Assembly: GCF_053078305.1 (NCBI RefSeq)
Contig: NZ_CP166879.1
Strand: one strand, 5' to 3'
Length of the DNA stretch: 64,000 nucleotides
The notes under the pieces: generated by a model
The model's database searches: none
The model's input: the letters and a program-made list of their open reading frames with translations, nothing else
Told to the model about the DNA's origin: nothing
Shown here: piece after piece, positions 3,450 to 25,712 of the stretch
Numbering within the stretch: the stretch's first letter is position 1
How the letters are laid out: every line of letters begins with the position of its first letter
Made by a program: the position numbers and the translations under genes

Positions 3450-3823
3450 CGTTTCGCCTCCGGATGCTTACCCCGGGTAATGTTATTTACCGTTCTGTAA
3501 TTGTCGCGGGTCATCAGGCCGGTCGCCCGGCGAGCCCGGAGGATATCAATACTGTTTATTAACTGAGAGCGGGGACTAGTGCTGAACCGGGGCTGGTCGG
3601 TACGCACCAGCGCGTATTTTTCAACGAGAAAGTTCACCGCGTCACACAGTGAAATGCCTGCCTCAATATGCTGCTCAATCACACGTTCATCGGAGAACGG
3701 TGTGTCATTTAGCGTGAGGCCGTAGTGCTGGTCCAGCAGTCGGGTGAGCAGTGTCTGCCAGATGGTTACTGGAGATGGGCAGCGCGATGCCTCCCGTACG
3801 TGTGTGTCGGGTAATGTGTTCAT
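3446..3823 (-). CDS. cbtA: CbtA-family toxin (YeeV/YkfI/YpjF-like, cytoskeleton-targeting)
   Basis: 125-aa product closely matching remembered YeeV sequence (…WQTLLTRLLDQHYGLTLNDTPFSDERVIEQHIEAGISLCDAVNFLVEKYALVRTDQ…). Confidence 0.85.
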   Translation of the reverse strand: MNTLPDTHVREASRCPSPVTIWQTLLTRLLDQHYGLTLNDTPFSDERVIEQHIEAGISLCDAVNFLVEKYALVRTDQPRFSTSPRSQLINSIDILRARRATGLMTRDNYRTVNNITRGKHPEAKR

Positions 3824-10437: not shown

Positions 10438-13400
10438 TCAGAAGGTCACATTCAGCGTGGCCTGACCGTTATAGCCTTCAGCGCTGCTGCCGCTGACGCT
10501 GTGGACATAACCTGCCTGAACGCCCAGGGTGATGTTTTCCCGGACACGGGCTTCCAGTCCGGCCTGCAGGTCCAGTGACGTACCATTCTGTGACGGTGAG
10601 AACGTCATGTTACTGCCGGCTGCGGCTGTACCCATGCTCATGTCCCCCCGGGAGCTGAAGGTGCGGATAACAGAAGGCTGTACCCACCAGTTCACCGGCA
10701 GTTCACGCACACTGTGTTTGGCACTGCCGCGCAGGGTGTCACGGGATGAGGTGCCTTTACCAAAGTTCATATCGTTGTGGCTGCCCAGACGGAAGCCGGC
10801 ACGCACATGTTGTGCACTGCCATGCCCGAACTTCACATAACCGGCGTTGTCCTGACCGTCATCCAGGGAGAGTCCCTGCCAGGTGTACTGCAGTTGCGGC
10901 TCCAGCATCAGATTGTCAGTGATACTGAAGGGCAGACCGGTTTCCAGTGAACCCAGCCAGCCCCGGCCCCGGACGCGGAAGTCGTTATTGTCCGATGAGG
11001 CTTTCATGCTGTGGCGGGTTCCCTGGGCCACAATGTCAGCCCACAGGCCGGAGGCGTTGTGTATCAGATTCAGGTATCCGCCCAGGCTGCCGGCATCATC
11101 CCGGACCGTGCCGGCACGGGAGCCGTCATCATCCTTAACATCAACGGAAGAATGGCCTGCAGCACCATACACCCCTGTCGTCAGAGACATACCGGCAACC
11201 TCTGTTCTCATCAGGTCACCCTCCAGACGGACGAAGCCATAGCTGCCGCTGCTTTCCGGCGTGGCCCCACGGACAATACCGCCGTTGTTATCGTGACCGA
11301 GATGGCCGCCCTGAATGCTGAGACGGACGCTGTTATTTTCACCGTTTACACCGGTCTGATGGCTGCGGGAGCCTGCCAGAATCCGGTCATAGTCCATTGC
11401 CTGTGTCAGCATGGAGGCATACAGGGGGACTTCTGCACGATAAGCATTTTCACTGCGCAGATACCAGCTCTCATCACTGTCCCGGTTGAGGGAGTAGTTA
11501 AAGGCCCCGGCCTGCAGCCTGTTCCCCTGGACAAAGGCCCCTTCCTCCGTGGTGGCACCGTTAATGGCTTCCACCACCTGAATACCCTTACCGCTGGTCG
11601 CCAGCCCCGACGCACTGTTGCCGGCGTTCACCATGTTCAGGATGGTTTTTCCGGTTGCCCTGCCGCCGTCAATGACCAGTCTGTCAGCATTGTTCTGTGC
11701 CATATCCGGGCGTACACGCAGGCTGATGGTGCCATTCTGCCCGTTCAGGTTTTTCACTTTCAGGGTTGCCGGTACGAACTTCCCTGTGCGGGTGGAGGTG
11801 AAATGAATCTGTCCGGCATGGCTGAGGTCATCCACCACCGACTGCACCGTGGCGTTATCAGGGATATTCCAGGTGGCACCGGAGGCGAGAGTGACATTCG
11901 TGGGGTCAATGGCACCGTTCAGCACAGTGCTGCCGGTCAGCTTCAGGGCTGTACCGCGCTGAGCAATGACATCCGTGGTGACGGTACTGTCGTTCAGCGT
12001 CAGCGTGCCTTCATTCAGGTTGACGGCTTTCTGGGTGAGTGTGGTGTTGCTGACAGTGAGTGTGCCACTTCCTGATTTTTCCACGCTGCCGTTACCGGTG
12101 AGAGAGCCTCCCTGCAGGAGTGCATCGCCTTCACGGATGGTCAGGGTATCGTTGTTCACCGTCTTCCCGGAAAGGGTAAGTATGGCGCCGTTATTCAGCG
12201 TGGTGGTGCCCGCCAGTGTGCCGCCCCTGGCGGTGAACAGTCCGCCATTTACCGTGGTATCCGTGGCCGTATCACCGGCGTTCAGCGTGAATGAACTGCC
12301 TTTTTCCAGCATCAGGGCATCCGCCTGACCGCCTCCGATACTGAATGCCTTTCCGTCGCTCCGTGTACCACTGACAGCGGCACCGGAATCGGCCAGCAGT
12401 ACACCGCCATTTCCCATGGATACGGTGGTGGCGGTACCACCGTTGCGGACATCCAGCGTTCCGCCATCATCCACACGGGTATTAGTGGCTGTGTGTCCGC
12501 TCAGCACATCCAGACGTCCGCCATTTTCCAGTACGACATTATCAGCTTTACCCTCCACAACAGAGAATGCTCCCAGGCGGTTTGTACCGGTAACGGTTGC
12601 AGCCGTACTGGTAACCAGTGCACCGCCCGTGTTCTGGGTGACATCAGACGCTTTACCGCCGGCATTCACCTGCAGCTTTCCTTTCTGGTTGATGGTGGTA
12701 TGCGCGGCAGTTCCTCCTTCCTTAATCACCTGCCAGCCATCACGGTTTATCAGCGTCTCTGTTGCCGTGCCACCGTTGTGTACATACTGGTTACCCCCCT
12801 CCAGCCGGGTGTTATGTGCCTCTCCGTGTACCGTCTGGTCACCACCGGCGTAAATGAGGGTGTCCCGTGCCATCCCCGAAGACCAGATAACCTGCCGGCC
12901 ATTTTTGTTGATGGTGGTGGATTCAGCCGTCCCTCCGACCATCTGACCGCTGGACACATTTTCAGACTCCGGACCACCTTCTGCACCGGTGTTGACGATG
13001 GTTCCGGTTGCCAGTCCGCCATGTTTTATGGTCTGGTAACCATCCAGGTTAATAATTGTACCGGCAGCTTTCCCTCCCCCGTGTACCCACTGCTCACCTC
13101 TGTTATCCAGCGTGGTGTTCACCGCCAGTCCGTTAAGGCTCTGCCCTCCGCCATCACGAATAACCGTATCACTGGCAGTTCCTCCTGCCTGCACAATCTG
13201 ACGACCATTTGCGGTGACAGTGGTGTTTCTGCCTGTGCCACCCGCGTTTATCCATTGCCCGCCGGTGTTTTCGTCACTGTCCGGCCCCAGCTCAAGCCCG
13301 GTACTGACAGTCACGCCATCAGCTGTTCCGGATACAAACTGGTTGTCATGGTTTACCAGTGTTCCGCCATTCACTGTTTCACCCGGGTGCACAACGATGT

Positions 13401-13566
13401 CAGCAGCCAGCACCGGGAGTGACGTGACCGCGGCAAGAGACAGTGCAACCGCCACACCGCCACGTTTACCCCGTGCGCGGGCCAGTTCGGAGGCAACCAC
13501 GAAAGCGCCCGTAATGTGATTCCATACCAGCCTGTAGCAGGTATTCAGATGTCGTTTCATCAGCAT
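10438..13566 (-). CDS. flu: Antigen 43 (Ag43) self-associating autotransporter adhesin
   Basis: 1042-aa product matching remembered Ag43 along its length: extended signal peptide MKRHLNTCYRLVWNH…, passenger repeats, C-terminal beta-barrel ending …GYNGQATLNVTF. True start probably Met at 13560. Confidence 0.95.
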   Translation of the reverse strand: MLMKRHLNTCYRLVWNHITGAFVVASELARARGKRGGVAVALSLAAVTSLPVLAADIVVHPGETVNGGTLVNHDNQFVSGTADGVTVSTGLELGPDSDENTGGQWINAGGTGRNTTVTANGRQIVQAGGTASDTVIRDGGGQSLNGLAVNTTLDNRGEQWVHGGGKAAGTIINLDGYQTIKHGGLATGTIVNTGAEGGPESENVSSGQMVGGTAESTTINKNGRQVIWSSGMARDTLIYAGGDQTVHGEAHNTRLEGGNQYVHNGGTATETLINRDGWQVIKEGGTAAHTTINQKGKLQVNAGGKASDVTQNTGGALVTSTAATVTGTNRLGAFSVVEGKADNVVLENGGRLDVLSGHTATNTRVDDGGTLDVRNGGTATTVSMGNGGVLLADSGAAVSGTRSDGKAFSIGGGQADALMLEKGSSFTLNAGDTATDTTVNGGLFTARGGTLAGTTTLNNGAILTLSGKTVNNDTLTIREGDALLQGGSLTGNGSVEKSGSGTLTVSNTTLTQKAVNLNEGTLTLNDSTVTTDVIAQRGTALKLTGSTVLNGAIDPTNVTLASGATWNIPDNATVQSVVDDLSHAGQIHFTSTRTGKFVPATLKVKNLNGQNGTISLRVRPDMAQNNADRLVIDGGRATGKTILNMVNAGNSASGLATSGKGIQVVEAINGATTEEGAFVQGNRLQAGAFNYSLNRDSDESWYLRSENAYRAEVPLYASMLTQAMDYDRILAGSRSHQTGVNGENNSVRLSIQGGHLGHDNNGGIVRGATPESSGSYGFVRLEGDLMRTEVAGMSLTTGVYGAAGHSSVDVKDDDGSRAGTVRDDAGSLGGYLNLIHNASGLWADIVAQGTRHSMKASSDNNDFRVRGRGWLGSLETGLPFSITDNLMLEPQLQYTWQGLSLDDGQDNAGYVKFGHGSAQHVRAGFRLGSHNDMNFGKGTSSRDTLRGSAKHSVRELPVNWWVQPSVIRTFSSRGDMSMGTAAAGSNMTFSPSQNGTSLDLQAGLEARVRENITLGVQAGYVHSVSGSSAEGYNGQATLNVTF

Positions 13567-13751
13567 TTCCTTAATCAGAGTGAGAGTGAATAAAAAAGCC
13601 GGTATCCACAGATGTGGATACCGGCAGGTAAAGGGTTACAGTGCCAGAGGTCCGGCTGACGGAAGTTTCTGACGTGTGGCTCTGTTGTTCCCTGAATGTC
13701 TTTCTGTACGTATCTGTGCATGTTACTGACAAAGGTTATTATTAGCTTATC

Positions 13752-13787
13752 GATCGATATAAACGATCGATAAAATAGGTATCGATC
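13752..13787 (-). promoter_or_regulatory. agn43 phase-variation switch: three GATC Dam sites in the OxyR operator region
   Basis: GATC at 13752, 13765 and 13784 within tatcGATCgatataaacGATCgataaaataggtatcGATCg, ~190-220 bp upstream of the flu start codon. Confidence 0.8.
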
Positions 13788-13892
13788 GTTTTATTCTATT
13801 GTTTGGCTATTGCACGGACAAGAGAGACAGTAACGAAAACAGCGCTTTTGTGAGCAGACTCAGAGTCAGGGAGGGCATCAGTCACGACAGGT

Positions 13893-14765
13893 TCAGAAGA
13901 AAATCCAGTTCCATACCGCACGGGCAACAGAGACCACCGTGTTACGAACAGCGCGCAGGGCCGTACGGACAACAGAGGCAACACAGACGCTCTCCGCTGT
14001 GTCAAATATCCGGTCCACCGCACCGGTAAACTGTTCACGGGCCTGAGACCGGACAGATTCCGTGCGCAGCTCGTCCTGCAGTCGGGTCATCAGGGGACTG
14101 GCGGCATGGTCGGGAAGCGCTGTCATGAGCGCACTGACCAGCGTATCCAGTTCCCAGCCGGTGCGGGCCGATACGGCCACAACCGGATGTACGGGCCGGA
14201 ACAGACGGAATACCGCCTCCGTTTTTTCGCGAATATTCTGTGCCTGTGCAGGAGAAGGCTGAATACCGGCCATATCCCATTCATGGCAGGGCTCCGTTTT
14301 GTCGGCCTGCGTCACCACAAACAGCACCTGCTGATGTCCCCGGTGCAGGATGTGTCGCCAGAAATACTCATCCACAGACAGGGCCCGGTCATCGGCTTTA
14401 ATCAGCCACAGCACCAGGTCAAGTTCAGGCAGAATGTCACGGTACAGGGCCTCATACTCTGCATCCCTGTCCCGGCTCTCGCCCACCCCGGGCAGGTCAG
14501 TGATAACCATGCTGTGACCGTGGCCACTCAGACGGAAGCGCCGTACTTCCCGGGTGCCGGCGTGAACATCACTGACCGGGGTGACCTCCCCCTGAAACAG
14601 TGCATTACAGAGTGAGGATTTACCGGCCCCGCTTTTACCCATAATGCCAATCACGGGTTCGTGACGGGTGAGTTTGCGCAGATGTTCCAGGATGTGACGG
14701 GAAAGTGAGTAAGGCAGGGAGGAGAGCGGTTTTTCAATTGCCTCAATGGCATCAGACGGATTCAT
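13893..14765 (-). CDS. yeeP: YeeP/YkfA/YfjP-family GTPase
   Basis: P-loop GIMGKSGAGKSSL plus G-motifs (DLPGVG, TQADK); ~290 aa from Met at 14765 (ORF extends to 14804); upstream of flu as in CP4-44. Confidence 0.8.
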   Translation of the reverse strand: MNPSDAIEAIEKPLSSLPYSLSRHILEHLRKLTRHEPVIGIMGKSGAGKSSLCNALFQGEVTPVSDVHAGTREVRRFRLSGHGHSMVITDLPGVGESRDRDAEYEALYRDILPELDLVLWLIKADDRALSVDEYFWRHILHRGHQQVLFVVTQADKTEPCHEWDMAGIQPSPAQAQNIREKTEAVFRLFRPVHPVVAVSARTGWELDTLVSALMTALPDHAASPLMTRLQDELRTESVRSQAREQFTGAVDRIFDTAESVCVASVVRTALRAVRNTVVSVARAVWNWIFF

Positions 14766-15208
14766 ACATGTATTCCCGGTGAAAAAAGACAAAACCCCGC
14801 GCACCGGAAAGGTGGCGGGGGATCCACGGAGATAATATCTGTCTGAAATTGTTTTGAATCGATGGGATTGTTGCGTATTAACATGAAGGAGATCAGGACT
14901 TATCCGTTACTGGGTGATCTCCTTCCATGAAAATACGCAGTTATTGTTAAACAGCAGGCTGATTTCTCCGTAAAGGGGAAAATATTTATCGGCTGCATGA
15001 TTATCAGGTGTGTCTGTGTTTACTGCTGTGAGTATTTTTCAGTGTATTGTGGGGGAGATGTCAGTGGGAGATATTAAATTTACGTTTATAATTATCTTAC
15101 TTCTTCTGTGTGTTTTTTATAAGAGTGCACACGTAATGATATCTGTTGATACCATGTGGTTAAGTGTTTCCCTTCCGGGTCATGCGTACTTGCAAAATGG
15201 CATCTGAA

Positions 15209-15238
15209 TCGATCACGGTTTGGCCAAACCGTGATCGA
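15209..15238. repeat. Perfect 30-bp palindrome in ORF-free AT-rich region
   Basis: tcgatcacggtttgg|ccaaaccgtgatcga: 15-bp arms, no spacer, contains two GATC sites. Confidence 0.9.
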
Positions 15239-16106
15239 ATAGAGAGGAATACGCACGTAATGATTAAATGCTTTTGTTACACCATTCTTCCGGCATGAAT
15301 ATTTATCCAGTTCCCTTTTTTATTTGTGTAGTGATACTGTCGGAATAGCGTTCAGTAATGTGAAGCGTCCTGTTAAAAATCTTTAATAAATGTGTCACCC
15401 TGGTCAGGAAATATCTGCTGAGATATTATTAGTTGGTGGTGTTTTTACTGAGTAATAGCTGGCTTTTAATTCCTGAACTGAAATACTGTCGCTCGTCAGG
15501 GTTTAATTAAAACTGGATGATGATGTGAAAATGAAGGCTGGTTTTTGTGTTTGTCGAGGAAGTGTTGTTTTTATCCATTCTCATCATTGGCTGGCTGCGA
15601 TTATACAGAAGTATTTGAAGAAAAAATGGTGCATTTTATCTGTGCCGGCAGGGAGGGGGATTTTCCTGATATGTCAGTATTAAATGGTTTTTGTTATTTA
15701 TAAAAATGTCATCCTGTCCATAGAATATTGTACTGAGTACTCAGCATTCAGCGCAGGAACTGTCATCTTCTTTATTTTATTCTTCTTCAGGAGGGCAGTT
15801 TTCTGAAAGCGTTACTCCGGGGAAACTGTTTATGTTTATTCCCGGCAGGAAACCCGTACCTGCAATACCCTGGATGATGCTTTTTGCTGGTACGTTGTTG
15901 TGTGAAAATTAATCAACATGTGTGCTCCGGAGAGCGCCCGTAGACGCACAGATTCATTCTGACATTCTTTAGCGACAAAATATCGATTGGTTATTATTTA
16001 ACCTGAAAATCGACAGAAATTTTTATCCTGTATTGATTCTGATGCTATTTTTGCTATTAGTAGCAATAGTTGCGGTACTTTATGTTCTGTGTGTTGTAAG
16101 GTCATT

Positions 16107-17597
16107 ATGCCATACTTTCAGTATCCTGATGAGTTTCCCCTGAGCTCGCTGCCTCCACTCATTCGTGATGCCGTTATTGAAGCTCAGCAAATCACGCAGG
16201 CTCCCCTGGGGCTTGTGGCAGCATCTGCCCTGGGCGCTGTTTCACTTGTCTGCCAGAATCTGATTGATGTCTGCAGACTGAATACACTGCGGGGGCCGGT
16301 TTCTCTTTTCTTACTGACGCTTGCTGAGTCCGGAGAACGAAAAACCGCAGTGGACAAATTATTAATGGAGCCCCTGTACCAGCAGGAGATGCTGTTATAT
16401 TCCAGACACAAAAATGAACTGACGACATGGAAAAATAAGGAAGAGCTTTTAAAGGCGCAGAAAAAAGCATTGTTGTCAAAACTGAATAAAGAACTCCGCA
16501 AAGGCGCGGATGAGTCAGAAACGCTCAGACAACTGGAAGCGCTTCAGAAAAACAGAGGGGAAAAACCTGTAAGATATAAATTCATTTTTAATGATGCCAC
16601 GACAGCAGCAATTAAAGATCAGCTTTGTGGTCAGTGGCGTTCAGTGGGTATCATGTCTGATGAAGCCGGTATAATATTTGATGGGTATACCCTGTCTGAG
16701 CTGCCTTTTATTAACAAAATGTGGGATGGCTCCGTATTGTCGGTGGACAGAAAGAATGAACCCGAACAGATGATTGAAAATGCCAGAATGACATTATCTC
16801 TCATGGTACAACCCGGTCTTTTTGACCGATATATGGAGCGAAAAGGTTCTGTTGCCAGGGACAGTGGTTTTCTTGCCCGTTGTCTAATCAGTAAACCTGC
16901 CACCACGCAGGGGAAACGCTTTATTAACGGAGCAGTGACCCCGGGAGAATCATTAACGGCATTTCATGAACGATTAATGGAACTGGCCAGAGGCAGTATT
17001 GAAAAATCCAGTAAGGATGAACGTTATTGTCTGCATTTTTCTCCAGAAGCGCAAAAAATATTTATTGATCACTATAATGTTCTGGAGCAGGATTTGTCTC
17101 CTTCCGGACCCTTAAGCCAGTTTCGGGGGCATGTTTCAAAAAAAACAGAAAACATTGCGAGAATTGCTGCGTTATTGCAGTATTTCAGTCAGGGTGAAGG
17201 GAAAATCTCTGCCGATATCATGACGTCTGCTGTCGTAATAAGTTCGTGGTACACAGATGAATATAAAAAATTATTTGCGTTACCTGATGAATCTGAACTG
17301 CAGCTGCAGGACGCCCGGGAGCTGCTCGACTGGCTCATTGAGGAGTGCCGCGGAGAATGCCCGCCCCGTGTCAGGAAAAATTATATTCTCCAGTGTGGCC
17401 CGGGCCGGTTCAGGAACAGGAAAAAGCTGAACGTCCTGCTGAACATTCTTGCATCTCAACTCAGGCTCTCTGTCGTGCAGGAAGGAAAAACCACCTATGT
17501 CCTGCTTTCCGAAATAAACAATATCACGCTGCCTGAACTGAATGCGTGCTACAGCCAGAAACTGATAAGATGGCATGAGCAATCCTTTGGCTTATAA
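16107..17597 (+). CDS. DUF3987 protein (YfjI-like; related to P4 alpha primase C-terminal region)
   Basis: ~496-aa ORF with AAGGT RBS before ATG 16107; family assignment from memory of island-borne YfjI-like proteins. Confidence 0.55.
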   Translation: MPYFQYPDEFPLSSLPPLIRDAVIEAQQITQAPLGLVAASALGAVSLVCQNLIDVCRLNTLRGPVSLFLLTLAESGERKTAVDKLLMEPLYQQEMLLYSRHKNELTTWKNKEELLKAQKKALLSKLNKELRKGADESETLRQLEALQKNRGEKPVRYKFIFNDATTAAIKDQLCGQWRSVGIMSDEAGIIFDGYTLSELPFINKMWDGSVLSVDRKNEPEQMIENARMTLSLMVQPGLFDRYMERKGSVARDSGFLARCLISKPATTQGKRFINGAVTPGESLTAFHERLMELARGSIEKSSKDERYCLHFSPEAQKIFIDHYNVLEQDLSPSGPLSQFRGHVSKKTENIARIAALLQYFSQGEGKISADIMTSAVVISSWYTDEYKKLFALPDESELQLQDARELLDWLIEECRGECPPRVRKNYILQCGPGRFRNRKKLNVLLNILASQLRLSVVQEGKTTYVLLSEINNITLPELNACYSQKLIRWHEQSFGL

Positions 17598-17718
17598 TGT
17601 TCCCTGTTGCTGAGACGGATTATTCAGTGGTGGTATCGCAGTATGCCCGTCACCCCCCGCTTCTGCATGAGGGTGACGGAGGAAAAGTAAGTGTGCGGAG
17701 GCCCGGGAGCGTTATGAA

Positions 17719-18420
17719 TCAACAGGCGTATAACAGGTACTCGTCAATCATCAGTTCCAGCTCGCGCTTTTCCCGTTTGCGCGCCACAGCCCAGTTTTCA
17801 AGCTCTGCATGTGATTTATGCTTTAACTCTTCAGTCCAGGGCTGCATGGAGTGGGCACACATCAGATCATACCAGCACAGCCATATCAGCGTGTGGTAGA
17901 GATCACGATCGTCGAAACGCCGGAGCAGGCTGTTCAGCCTGTTTGCCAGCCGGTTTTCACCCAGACGATGTGGCTCACTGAGTAAAACGCCGCCCAGATT
18001 AAAATGTGTAAGCAGCATGATTTCATGGGTCTGAATGCTGGTCATTAACCCTTCCTGAATGGCAGGAATGAACGGTGGTGTTCCCGGGTTGACGACCTGA
18101 TAGAGTCCCTGTGGTGCCACTGAGATGATAGTGCCTTTTTCCGGCAGAAAAAAGTGTGCCAGGGTCAGACGGTGATAACCATGAAGATGCGGAGACCCCA
18201 TTCCATGAGCGACGATAAGCCTCGTTCTGATGCTGGATGAGCAGCAGCTCACACCGGTTTTCAAGTTTTTGCATAATATTCTCTCCTTTAGCGCGCAGCA
18301 AAATGCCTCCGGGGGCCGGATCATGCCTTTGCTGCGGTGGAACGGATAACGGTCAGGAATTACGGACGGGACTGTGCAATACGCGCCTGCAGCCAGGCTT
18401 CCACTTCGCTTTTCAGCCAT
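17719..18420 (-). CDS. Hypothetical protein, probably frameshifted or with a later start
   Basis: Long ORF overlaps alpA by 60 nt; a GGAGAG-ATG start at 18265-18267 opens a different frame (ORF 18023..18301) that runs only 92 codons before stopping, with the long frame offset from it by one base. Confidence 0.3.
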   Translation of the reverse strand: MAEKRSGSLAAGAYCTVPSVIPDRYPFHRSKGMIRPPEAFCCALKERILCKNLKTGVSCCSSSIRTRLIVAHGMGSPHLHGYHRLTLAHFFLPEKGTIISVAPQGLYQVVNPGTPPFIPAIQEGLMTSIQTHEIMLLTHFNLGGVLLSEPHRLGENRLANRLNSLLRRFDDRDLYHTLIWLCWYDLMCAHSMQPWTEELKHKSHAELENWAVARKREKRELELMIDEYLLYAC

Positions 18421-18566
18421 CGGGAGCTACGGCCCAGTTTGATGGGGGCAGGAAAGGCACCATCCTTGATGAGCTTGTAAAACCATTTATCGGTCAGGCC
18501 GGTCAGCTGAGTGATAAACGACATGTCGACCATCTGGTCATCCATCAGTGAAACTGGGGTATTCAT
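18360..18566 (-). CDS. alpA: AlpA-family phage/island transcriptional regulator
   Basis: 68-aa product from Met at 18566 with GGAGG RBS; AlpA-type HTH (…LTGLTDKWFYKLIKDGAFPAPIKLGRSSRWLKSEVEAWL). Confidence 0.75.
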   Translation of the reverse strand: MNTPVSLMDDQMVDMSFITQLTGLTDKWFYKLIKDGAFPAPIKLGRSSRWLKSEVEAWLQARIAQSRP

Positions 18567-24516: not shown

Positions 24517-25712
24517 ATCTTCCTGCGTCCCCTCCGGTCAGCCGGCACTTTGTCATCCTGACTGATTCATCATTCCTTTCATATTGCCAGTCACAGCTGC
24601 TTGCATCGAACCGTACTTGTGTTGATGCGTCTGCACCGACTTAACCAAATTCAACAGAGATAAAATAGTGCAAATCACCGAAGCCTTACTTTCAGAGCCG
24701 GGGGAAATCCGGCGTTTTGTTCAGCAGGCGGTGGATCACTGGCCGCATCTGCTGGCAATCCACTTCACACTTCATTCGACCAGAGTAAATATTGATGATT
24801 ACTAGATTCGTGTATTTTATCAGGCATTTTACTTGCGAATAAATCCCCTTGTTATCCAGCGAAACCACACCGGTAGCTATTACCATATGTCGTAATACAC
24901 TAGTTACAGGAAAAACATGCAGGTTCCGCAATACGTTGTGTGTTGCTGCTTAGTCAGGATCTTTTCTTCCATGCGAGATACGACAACACTTTTGAGGAAG
25001 GATGTTCGTAACTGGTAGAGTTACTACAACAGGCATGGGAGGCTCCGGCTCTGACAGACATTGTACTGTGGAATGTTGTTACAGGTTGGGGCGGCAACCG
25101 TGCCAGGAGACTATGAGCCGTTCACGGCATTAAAGGCCACACTTCAGTCGTTTACATTCCCTGTGGTGGCAGGCATCTTCCGTTAAGGCGTCAGAGCGTT
25201 ACCAACGTTATGTTGTCATGGCTCACCTTTCATAGTCGATGCTTATCTGGTGACTGAAACTAGCCGCAGATAAAGAGTGTGAAGTTGATACCATGGAGTG
25301 GAGTGACGTGCAGGCAGGAGATTCGCTCTATGCAGGGTTGTGAGATGAATTCAAACCGGCTGTCAGCGCCAGTGATATTTGAAGATTCGTCCGGTTGTTA
25401 TCCAGTGTGCATTAAAAACCCAGACATTATGGACAATACAACGGCTTCCATAACAGGGAGGAGCCTGTTTATTATCCGGGCGTAATGACTCACCTTTGTG
25501 GGCTTTTTCCCGTCGCGCTTTTAACGTTGAAGGCATTTTCTGCCTGCCGATTCAGGACAGCGACAAAAGCCATATCAGACTATTGGTCAATGATGACCAG
25601 CGTCTGGAGTAGATGATAAGCCAAATTGATAAGCTGGAATATGTGATGAAAGTGCAACGTAATCAGTCCAATCCGACGATGTTTAACAAGAGTACGGTGT
25701 TTTTTCAGTAAG

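Follow-up and report, generated by a model that had tools for sequence, protein, structure and literature searches.

The 1,341 bp which separate a YeeP/YfjP-like GTPase gene from a divergent yfjI-family gene in a CP4-like genomic island of E. coli very probably form an intergenic spacer where two modules of that island meet, and both of the hairpins visible in this spacer very probably derive from IS21-family insertion sequences, of which they would be non-autonomous remnants. The gap is real but ordinary, a module boundary with a spacer that carries IS debris. The main value of the analysis lies in this correction, as what looks like a regulatory palindrome with Dam sites between two divergent island genes turns out to be IS debris. 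Comparison also locates the constraint within this widespread gap in two short edge elements, and judging from their deep conservation, which is confined to these stretches, the two edges would be the working parts of the gap.

The gap and the island around it

The window, i.e. the whole stretch of DNA that was analysed, comprises 64,000 nucleotides (64 kb) of contig NZ_CP166879.1 and holds a CP4-like E. coli genomic island. All positions refer to this window, and the features discussed are collected in Table 1. The gap was taken as 14766-16106, its bounds being set by the annotation of a 99.1%-identical genome, in which the GTPase starts with the ATG at 14765 and YfjI with the ATG at 16107. 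A sequence-only reading of the window had described an AT-rich segment free of ORFs between a YeeP-like and a YfjI-like gene, and all of this is borne out. The longest ORF wholly within the gap has 65 aa (15010-15207) and none is longer; the GC content of the gap is 36-41% (0.36-0.41 over 14800-16150) as compared to 0.54-0.62 in the GTPase and Ag43 genes; and the flanks are an MMR_HSR1 GTPase on the left (E 9e-15) and a DUF3987/YfjI protein on the right (E 2e-95).

In strain ST130, which carries a 99.1%-identical copy of the locus adjoining yghD and the gsp genes, PGAP labels the two flanking genes "GTPase family protein" and "YfjI family protein" and leaves the gap between them without annotation. 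When a 1,284-bp query from the gap was counted as present at a coverage of at least 80%, it was found in 1,812 of 5,426 complete E. coli genomes, about one third, at identities of 80-99%. Among the approximately 70 records listed, of 1,973 matching, no annotated feature lay beneath the gap match.

Table 1. Features in and next to the gap, in window coordinates.
Feature	Position	Strand	Evidence and remarks
Ag43	10438-13566	minus	
IS102/isrC RNA	13585-13789	minus	Rfam RF00124, 252.9 bits
YeeP/YfjP-like GTPase gene, left flank	13893-14765	minus	Pfam MMR_HSR1, E 8.7e-15
GTPase promoter and leader (predicted)	14766-14858	minus	Cross-genus conservation, folds
Mini-IS #2	14872-14939	none	68 bp, imperfect terminal inverted repeats of ~24 nt, TGCGTATTAACATGAAGGAGATCA ... 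TGATCTCCTTCCATGAAAATACGCA
Left target-site duplication	15185-15190		6 bp, CGTACT; alignment with O26 empty site
Mini-IS #1	15191-15255	none	65 bp, TG...CA, both ends of an ISSso4-like IS21-family IS
Right target-site duplication	15256-15261		6 bp, CGTAAT; alignment with O26 empty site
Central AT-rich spacer	15262-16042 plus 14940-15184		No gene, RNA family or constraint detected
Imperfect palindromic element	16043-16073	plus	TGCTATTTTTGCTA-TTAG-TAGCAATAGTTGC; ends 34 nt before the yfjI ATG
YfjI-family (DUF3987) gene, right flank	16107-17597	plus	Pfam DUF3987, E 2.2e-95

The position of the module boundary was given by the loci of other genera. In more than 20 of these, similarity to the window breaks off near 14860, approximately 95 nt ahead of the start codon of the GTPase; beyond this point the loci carry unrelated genes. 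Since conservation with other genera stops there, the gap marks a module junction. A junction between island modules had been one of the suggestions of the sequence-only reading, together with a comparison of related islands as the way to check it, and this comparison does map a boundary within the gap, near 14860, where the conserved module headed by the GTPase begins. In the other genera only 84-493 bp are found upstream of the GTPase; this short space, together with the unrelated upstream genes, indicates that the long gap is specific to this type of E. coli island.

The central ~1.05 kb of the gap bears no sign of purifying selection and, on the evidence of the two main haplotypes on which this reading is based, appears to drift neutrally, because its divergence is close to the third-codon-position rate and its indels are not kept to multiples of three. 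Between the window and the KY172 haplotype the identity per 100 bp is 0.66-0.96 across the spacer and that of the third codon positions of the flanking genes is 0.87-0.92, while indels of 1, 2, 3, 7, and 29 bp separate the haplotypes in the spacer. Two small ORFs at 15525-15683 and 15684-15806 were considered as genes and ruled out, as both are frameshifted in the other haplotype. When the right-hand 833 bp of the gap were searched against plasmids, only chromosome-sized records filed as plasmids matched, and within the 64-kb window the gap showed no self-similarity besides the palindrome described below.

Two other readings of the gap as a whole were weighed against this one. In the first, the gap would encode a long non-coding RNA or form an extended, structured 5' UTR of yfjI, and the hairpins would be RNA structures. 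This would be in keeping with the strong strand asymmetry across 14650-15850 (GC skew of up to +0.375, with G>C and T>A), which counts against a neutral spacer, and with the retention of the gap in more than 1,800 genomes. We nevertheless consider it unlikely, as an Rfam 15 scan at E<=1 over 13000-18000 recovered IS102/isrC alone, which lies outside the gap, promoter- and terminator-like sites are no commoner in the gap than in shuffles, the hairpin arms are broken without compensation in the Ecol_656 haplotype, the divergence is near neutral and includes indels, and the region was not found outside E. coli. That the gap is a decayed gene is slightly more improbable still. The candidates would be the variable gene which precedes the GTPase in other genera, where a gene of 294-401 aa ends 84-125 nt before the GTPase ATG, or alpA, which in K-12 immediately precedes yfjI; but tblastn searches with the upstream proteins of the other genera and with AlpA, IntA, YfjH, and YfjJ gave no significant match (best E values of 0.03-0.25), the nine longest stop-free stretches of the gap (44-75 aa) have no match in Pfam, and in none of the matches listed does PGAP annotate a pseudogene. 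The reading of a spacer carrying IS remnants at a module junction is therefore retained in what follows.

Two miniature elements with IS21-family ends

The most conspicuous feature of the gap, reported by the sequence-only reading as a perfect 30-bp palindrome with two GATC sites at 15209-15238, is exactly as described. The arms, 15209-15223 and 15224-15238, adjoin each other without a spacer and pair at 100% of their positions, the GATC sites are at 15211-15214 and 15233-15236, and the 26-nt core found no match in 100 shuffles with three mismatches allowed. This palindrome is the junction between two repeats, L1 and R1, of a 65-bp element, mini-IS #1, which consists of the first 33 nt (IRL and repeat L1) and the last 32 nt (repeat R1 and IRR) of an ISSso4-like parent IS, with TG at 15191-15192 and CA at 15254-15255 as its termini. 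The two repeats TCGATCACGGTTTGG, with one GATC each, face each other and are joined at GG/CC. The palindrome is perfect over 30 bp because the element retains only the outermost transposase-binding repeat of each IS end, and it contains two GATC sites because every terminal repeat of the parent IS carries one.

The identity of the parent came from a 91-bp palindrome probe which matched 470 plasmids, most of them over one half only, either 15191-15224, corresponding to IRL, or 15223-15256, corresponding to IRR, at 94-97% identity to the ends of the parent IS. In three plasmids the first half sits ~200 bp upstream of istA and the second half is at the opposite end of the IS, an element labelled by PGAP as IS21 family or ISSso4 family. 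The parent IS is 2,639 bp long, starts with TGCAAAATGGCATCTGAATCGATC and ends with GATCGAATAGAGCGGAATACGCA, and carries five GATC-containing repeats of ~15 bp at its left end and two or three at its right end. In L005, the one full-length copy from which a clean target-site duplication (TSD) was obtained, it is flanked by the 6-bp TSD GATCAC. The 64-kb window holds no full-length ISSso4-like IS, and no other IS21-like ends were found in it with up to five mismatches.

An empty site was available for comparison. When five alleles were aligned, exactly 71 bp were missing from that of O26:H11, namely the 65-bp element and one 6-bp repeat, and this allele reads GGTCATG-CGTAAT-GATT where the filled site is CGTACT-(65 bp)-CGTAAT, the two copies of the TSD differing by one mismatch. 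The contiguous empty site was found at 1,466 places in 1,186 of the 5,426 genomes, and the full-length mini-IS #1 in 823; the element is carried by only ~40% of alleles. With both ends of the parent, TG...CA termini, a TSD of the parental size and an empty site, mini-IS #1 appears to have been inserted by transposition into CGTAAT with duplication of 6 bp, and to be still polymorphic in E. coli. IstA and IstB of a full-length copy would be expected to mobilise it in trans, and it presumably has no function for the host.

The 65-bp element also occurs on ~62 plasmids, both of those inspected for this assignment being IncF; there it lies between the stb/parM region and cargo genes and has a different right flank. 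The plasmid copy keeps the parental base (GCCAATCC) and its palindrome is imperfect; a single T-to-A difference from it makes the fused repeats of the window perfectly palindromic. The spread between plasmid and chromosome may have occurred by recombination and not by independent transposition, because no TSD flanks the plasmid copy and ~10 bp of its left flank are the same as in the chromosomal copy. The identical 65-bp element was seen at one chromosomal locus and in one plasmid context only, while related mini-ISs of the same ends are present at other sites; a further IRR/IRL mini-IS was found near hha in ST130.

The second, imperfect hairpin of the sequence-only reading, placed by it at 14888-14928, is also real, its position being about 3 nt off. 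Perfect 11-nt arms at 14885-14895 and 14915-14925 enclose a loop of 19 nt, and are surrounded by an outer pair of 14 nt (14872-14885 and 14926-14939) that is 86% complementary. This hairpin is the core of mini-IS #2, the DNA fold of which has -19.1 kcal/mol (z -7.0). The element begins with TGCGTATT and ends with AATACGCA, the terminal octamer of the right end of the parent IS followed by ...GATCA, and its termini thus resemble the IRR of the ISSso4-like IS (TGCGTATT...GATCA). An 80-bp probe found mini-IS #2 in 2,748 genomes as compared to 1,938 with the locus. The independent copies match exactly 14872-14938, some of them under "hypothetical protein" annotations; one copy is near papX in strain YP3 (L042), and a hybrid with an IRL-type end lies between Ag43 and DUF932 in ST130 and LHM10-1. 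There is no recognisable TSD, the flanks GATTGT and GTTATT being different, and no empty site was found, the element being present in every one of the five E. coli alleles aligned. Three positions of the stem differ in the Ecol_656 haplotype with no compensating change, which argues against a selected structure in this hairpin. With inverted repeats of IS type at its ends and further copies in unrelated surroundings, mini-IS #2 is probably an older mini-IS of 68 bp with ends related to those of mini-IS #1.

For the 30-bp palindrome itself the sequence-only reading had offered other explanations. An operator for a dimeric island regulator of the divergent GTPase and yfjI genes was suggested by its perfect dyad symmetry, its two GATC sites and its placement between divergent genes. 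This is now scarcely credible: the palindrome is missing at the homologous locus in the 1,186 genomes with the empty site and is found in no other genus, its arms are terminal repeats of the IS21 family, that is a pair of IS ends which occur beside istA on many plasmids, and it lies ~330 bp from the GTPase promoter and ~870 bp from the start of yfjI. An operator should be kept wherever the locus is kept, and this is the behavior of the element at 16043-16073 and not of the 30-bp palindrome. The proposal of a recombination site stands in the sense of ends recognised by a transposase and falls in any other sense. An Frpo-like ssDNA promoter, an oriT, a replication origin, and a Xer or att site were also considered for the palindrome and are excluded by the match to IS ends together with the empty site. 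A more serious alternative, which is possible and which we still regard as doubtful, is that mini-IS #1 is not a transposed miniature but the dead remnant of a full IS inserted here and reduced in situ by an internal deletion. A full IS that inserted here and then lost everything between L1 and R1 would account equally well for the TSD and the empty site, the junction falls in a GGCC microhomology, and on chromosomes the element is essentially confined to a single locus; it is the recurrence of the identical derivative, with the same junction, on the plasmids with their different right flank that speaks against a deletion at this site, as do the other combinations of the same ends at other sites and the lack of a full IS at the site among the matches listed. 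Transposition of a ready-made miniature remains our preferred reading for mini-IS #1. As IS21-type mini-elements are unannotated by PGAP in the genomes inspected, they need to be masked by annotators and by those searching for motifs.

The conserved edges of the gap

On the minus strand the left edge would provide a constitutive-type sigma-70 promoter followed by a terminator-like hairpin which would gate the GTPase gene and, downstream of it, isrC and Ag43. The predicted promoter has a -35 box TTCAAA at 14853-14858, a spacer of 15 nt and a -10 box TATTAT at 14832-14837. The leader continues with a hairpin at 14795-14820 (CCCCGCCACC-TTTCC-GGTGCGCGGGG) and a U-tract at 14782-14794 ahead of the ATG. 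A scan of the gap for sigma-70 promoter and terminator consensus sequences, in which counts were not above those of shuffles, missed this promoter because its spacer has 15 nt.

The evidence for constraint on the leader comes from other genera. A GTPase protein scan with one genome per species gave 31 loci, the homologues in other genera being 45-61% identical at the protein level, and in these other-genera loci the ~80-95 nt before the GTPase ATG are ~80% identical to 14766-14859. The leader is conserved in this way in Citrobacter, Yersinia, Photorhabdus, Hafnia, Serratia, Edaphovirga, and Salmonella diarizonae, as well as in Enterobacter, Lelliottia, Xenorhabdus, and Pectobacterium. The spacer between the -35 and -10 boxes is near-invariant over at least 10 genera, and the 20-nt promoter core AATTTCAGAYAGATATYATC, which corresponds to TTCAAA-15-TATTAT, is found exactly in 17 loci and is unique in the window. 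A metagenome scan with a 16-nt promoter core returned mostly chance matches and nine loci with the GTPase gene downstream, and a viral scan added two further GTPase-bearing loci with the promoter core.

A hairpin forms in every one of the 28 leaders examined (-7 to -22.6 kcal/mol), and 26 of them have a U-rich tail, with stems of at least five sequences which are unrelated to one another. Between the hairpin and the AUG lie 19-31 nt, and the distance from the -10 box to the AUG is 67-70 or 77-79 nt. These folds were computed on single sequences; RNAalifold run on a MAFFT alignment gave no pairs because MAFFT misaligned the stems. The stretch 14782-14820 thus has the features of an intrinsic terminator or attenuator, i.e., a GC-rich stem-loop, a U-tract, a placement between promoter and start codon, and a structure that is kept. 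The promoter and terminator-like leader are common to island GTPase operons across Enterobacterales, including yfjP of K-12.

Rather speculatively, the segment 14766-14858 may be a new regulatory gate for the conserved GTPase-DUF932-antirestriction-RadC-CbeA/CbtA module found in enterobacterial islands, acting via factor-dependent antitermination or a similar attenuation. A PF05930 AlpA-family HTH gene at 18360-18566 and a partner ORF travel with the module in eight other genera, and the 68-aa HTH protein could perhaps drive such a switch at the GTPase leader. We take this island "AlpA" to belong to an excisionase-like family unrelated to the AlpA of Pseudomonas.

The right edge, on the plus strand, would be the second working part, in the form of the palindromic element directly upstream of yfjI. 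Its degenerate motif, TGCTATTTNNGCNANTNNTAGC, has a single match in the window, where 0.01 would be expected. The palindrome is present in 13 of the 13 yfjI-bearing loci that matched (a count which leaves out the matching loci L150 and L158), including CP4-57 of K-12, and YfjI homologues with the palindrome from viral contigs have 51-53% protein identity. The K-12 version CTGCTATTTCCGCCATTAATAGCGGAATAGC is an imperfect palindrome of ~30 bp which ends 47 nt before the yfjI ATG, while the version in L171 is perfect, with 15-nt arms. Symmetric changes, from CC/GG to TT/AA, are seen between versions and would be compatible both with binding by a protein dimer and with hairpin formation in the RNA. 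The gap thus has an operator-like palindrome, but it is this one at 16043-16073 and not the site named by the sequence-only reading. As a side finding the GTPase leader is of modest interest, and together with the yfjI palindrome it deserves follow-up; the leader in particular offers a testable handle on the switching of cryptic island modules, including Ag43 and the CbtA/CbeA toxin-antitoxin genes.

Comparison with known systems

For the antitermination hypothesis the relevant systems are the loading sites of processive antiterminators, such as those of lambda Q at PR' and of P. aeruginosa AlpA at PalpB (PMC7969949, PMC9371919). The GTPase leader resembles them in that a specific conserved sequence separates -35 from -10 and a predicted intrinsic terminator precedes the first gene. 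It differs from both in that the initial transcribed region has no convincing -10-like pause element, the conserved GTGAAT box being a poor -10 mimic (three of six positions, no A at position 2), and from the P. aeruginosa site in that its motif bears no relation to the ABE (GGGACG). For the island, neither a homologue of Q nor one of the P. aeruginosa AlpA was identified.

The closest relatives of the promoter itself are those of the K-12 paralogues yfjP and ykfA, which read TTGAAA-15-TATCAT where the window has TTCAAA-15-TATTAT, and which a genomic SELEX study lists as constitutive sigma-70 (RpoD) promoters (Shimada et al., 2014; PMC3946193); the promoter of the window allele is by comparison a prediction from its sequence. 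In the sequence of yfjP the leader hairpin, U-tract, and ATG lie at the same distance from the promoter as in the window. The SELEX study is silent on the leader hairpin and on the cross-genus conservation of the spacer, and no description of a terminator or leader upstream of yfjP was found in the literature searched.

With IS21-family ISs of the ISSso4-like type, which encode istA and istB, mini-IS #1 shares the IRL and IRR ends, the TG...CA termini, a GATC repeat on each side, and a 6-bp TSD. It differs from them in the loss of istA and istB, in its size (65 bp vs 2,639 bp), and in keeping one of about five left repeats and one of two or three right repeats.

MITEs are non-autonomous miniature derivatives of bacterial ISs. 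In the literature searched we found no description of IS21-derived MITEs in E. coli. Mini-IS #1 departs from the MITE pattern in its very low copy number and in a mobility that is a prediction only, but it is like MITEs in being small and non-coding, in having the terminal inverted repeats of its parent IS and a TSD, in its presence/absence polymorphism, and in the occurrence of related copies at several sites.

Conserved blocks at the edges of the gap

At the left edge of the gap between the YeeP/YfjP-like GTPase gene and yfjI, a hairpin lies between the GTPase promoter and the ATG, and the spacer of this promoter is near-invariant. K-12 yfjP and at least 10 genera of enterobacteria share this promoter/leader block, for which Rfam has no family. 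At GTPase loci of other genera (L012-L029) a co-oriented gene of 294-401 aa stops at the promoter core, some 84-125 nt before the GTPase ATG; these genes belong to three families which are weakly related or unrelated, and a counterpart is absent from the window. The plus strand of 14650-15850 is strongly asymmetric in composition, with a GC skew that reaches +0.375 and an AT skew near -0.2; neither a coding nor an RNA signal was found in this interval.

The palindrome at the right edge could be either an operator or an RNA hairpin. The motif TGCTATTTNNGCNANTNNTAGC upstream of yfjI also precedes yfjI in CP4-57 of K-12, and is found upstream of YfjI homologues with about 52% identity.

Features in the window and in compared loci
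Feature	Location	Strand	Remarks
IS102/isrC small RNA	window 13585-13789	minus	Rfam RF00124, 252.9 bits
GTPase promoter (TTCAAA-15-TATTAT) and terminator-like leader hairpin	window 14766-14858	minus	5' of ATG
Imperfect ~30-bp palindrome	window 16043-16073		upstream of yfjI
Uncharacterised ORF	window 17719-18420	minus	adjoins HTH gene
Phage_AlpA-family HTH gene	window 18360-18566	minus	PF05930, E 1e-8
65-bp mini-IS, plasmid copy	L002 5990-6080		IncF plasmid p309074-2
Additional mini-IS21-type elements	L001 (ST130) 15431-15514, 25041-25106; L166 ~3501-3535

Mini-IS elements and their targets

The host sequence holds a direct repeat, CGTAATGAT, at 15132-15140 and 15256-15264, and mini-IS #1, the 65-bp IS21-family remnant, inserted at the second copy; the bases directly before the first copy, GAGTGCACA, bear a faint likeness to an IS end. 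In O26:H11 FWSEC0001 (L007 4193-7167) an IS66-family insertion (ISEc8) splits yfjI, and this allele also lacks mini-IS #1. The plasmid copy has no target duplication, and its left flank of 10-12 bp (CATGTATACTGC) is similar to the chromosomal flank CATGCGTACT, a likeness which may be due to common descent or to a preference for certain targets. Other mini-IS21-type elements, 66-84 bp long and with varied combinations of IRL and IRR ends, are sited near hha and between Ag43 and DUF932 in ST130 and L166, and none of them is annotated.

Neighbouring genes and small RNA

Homologues of the HTH gene and its adjoining ORF occur in eight other genera (65-78% and 26-38% aa identity, respectively), where the pair lies 1.5-2.5 kb upstream of the GTPase gene and divergent from it. 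The orientation of the pair in the window is the opposite, which suggests an inversion. On the other side of the GTPase gene, IS102/isrC is located between it and Ag43, the same arrangement as in CP4-44 of K-12.
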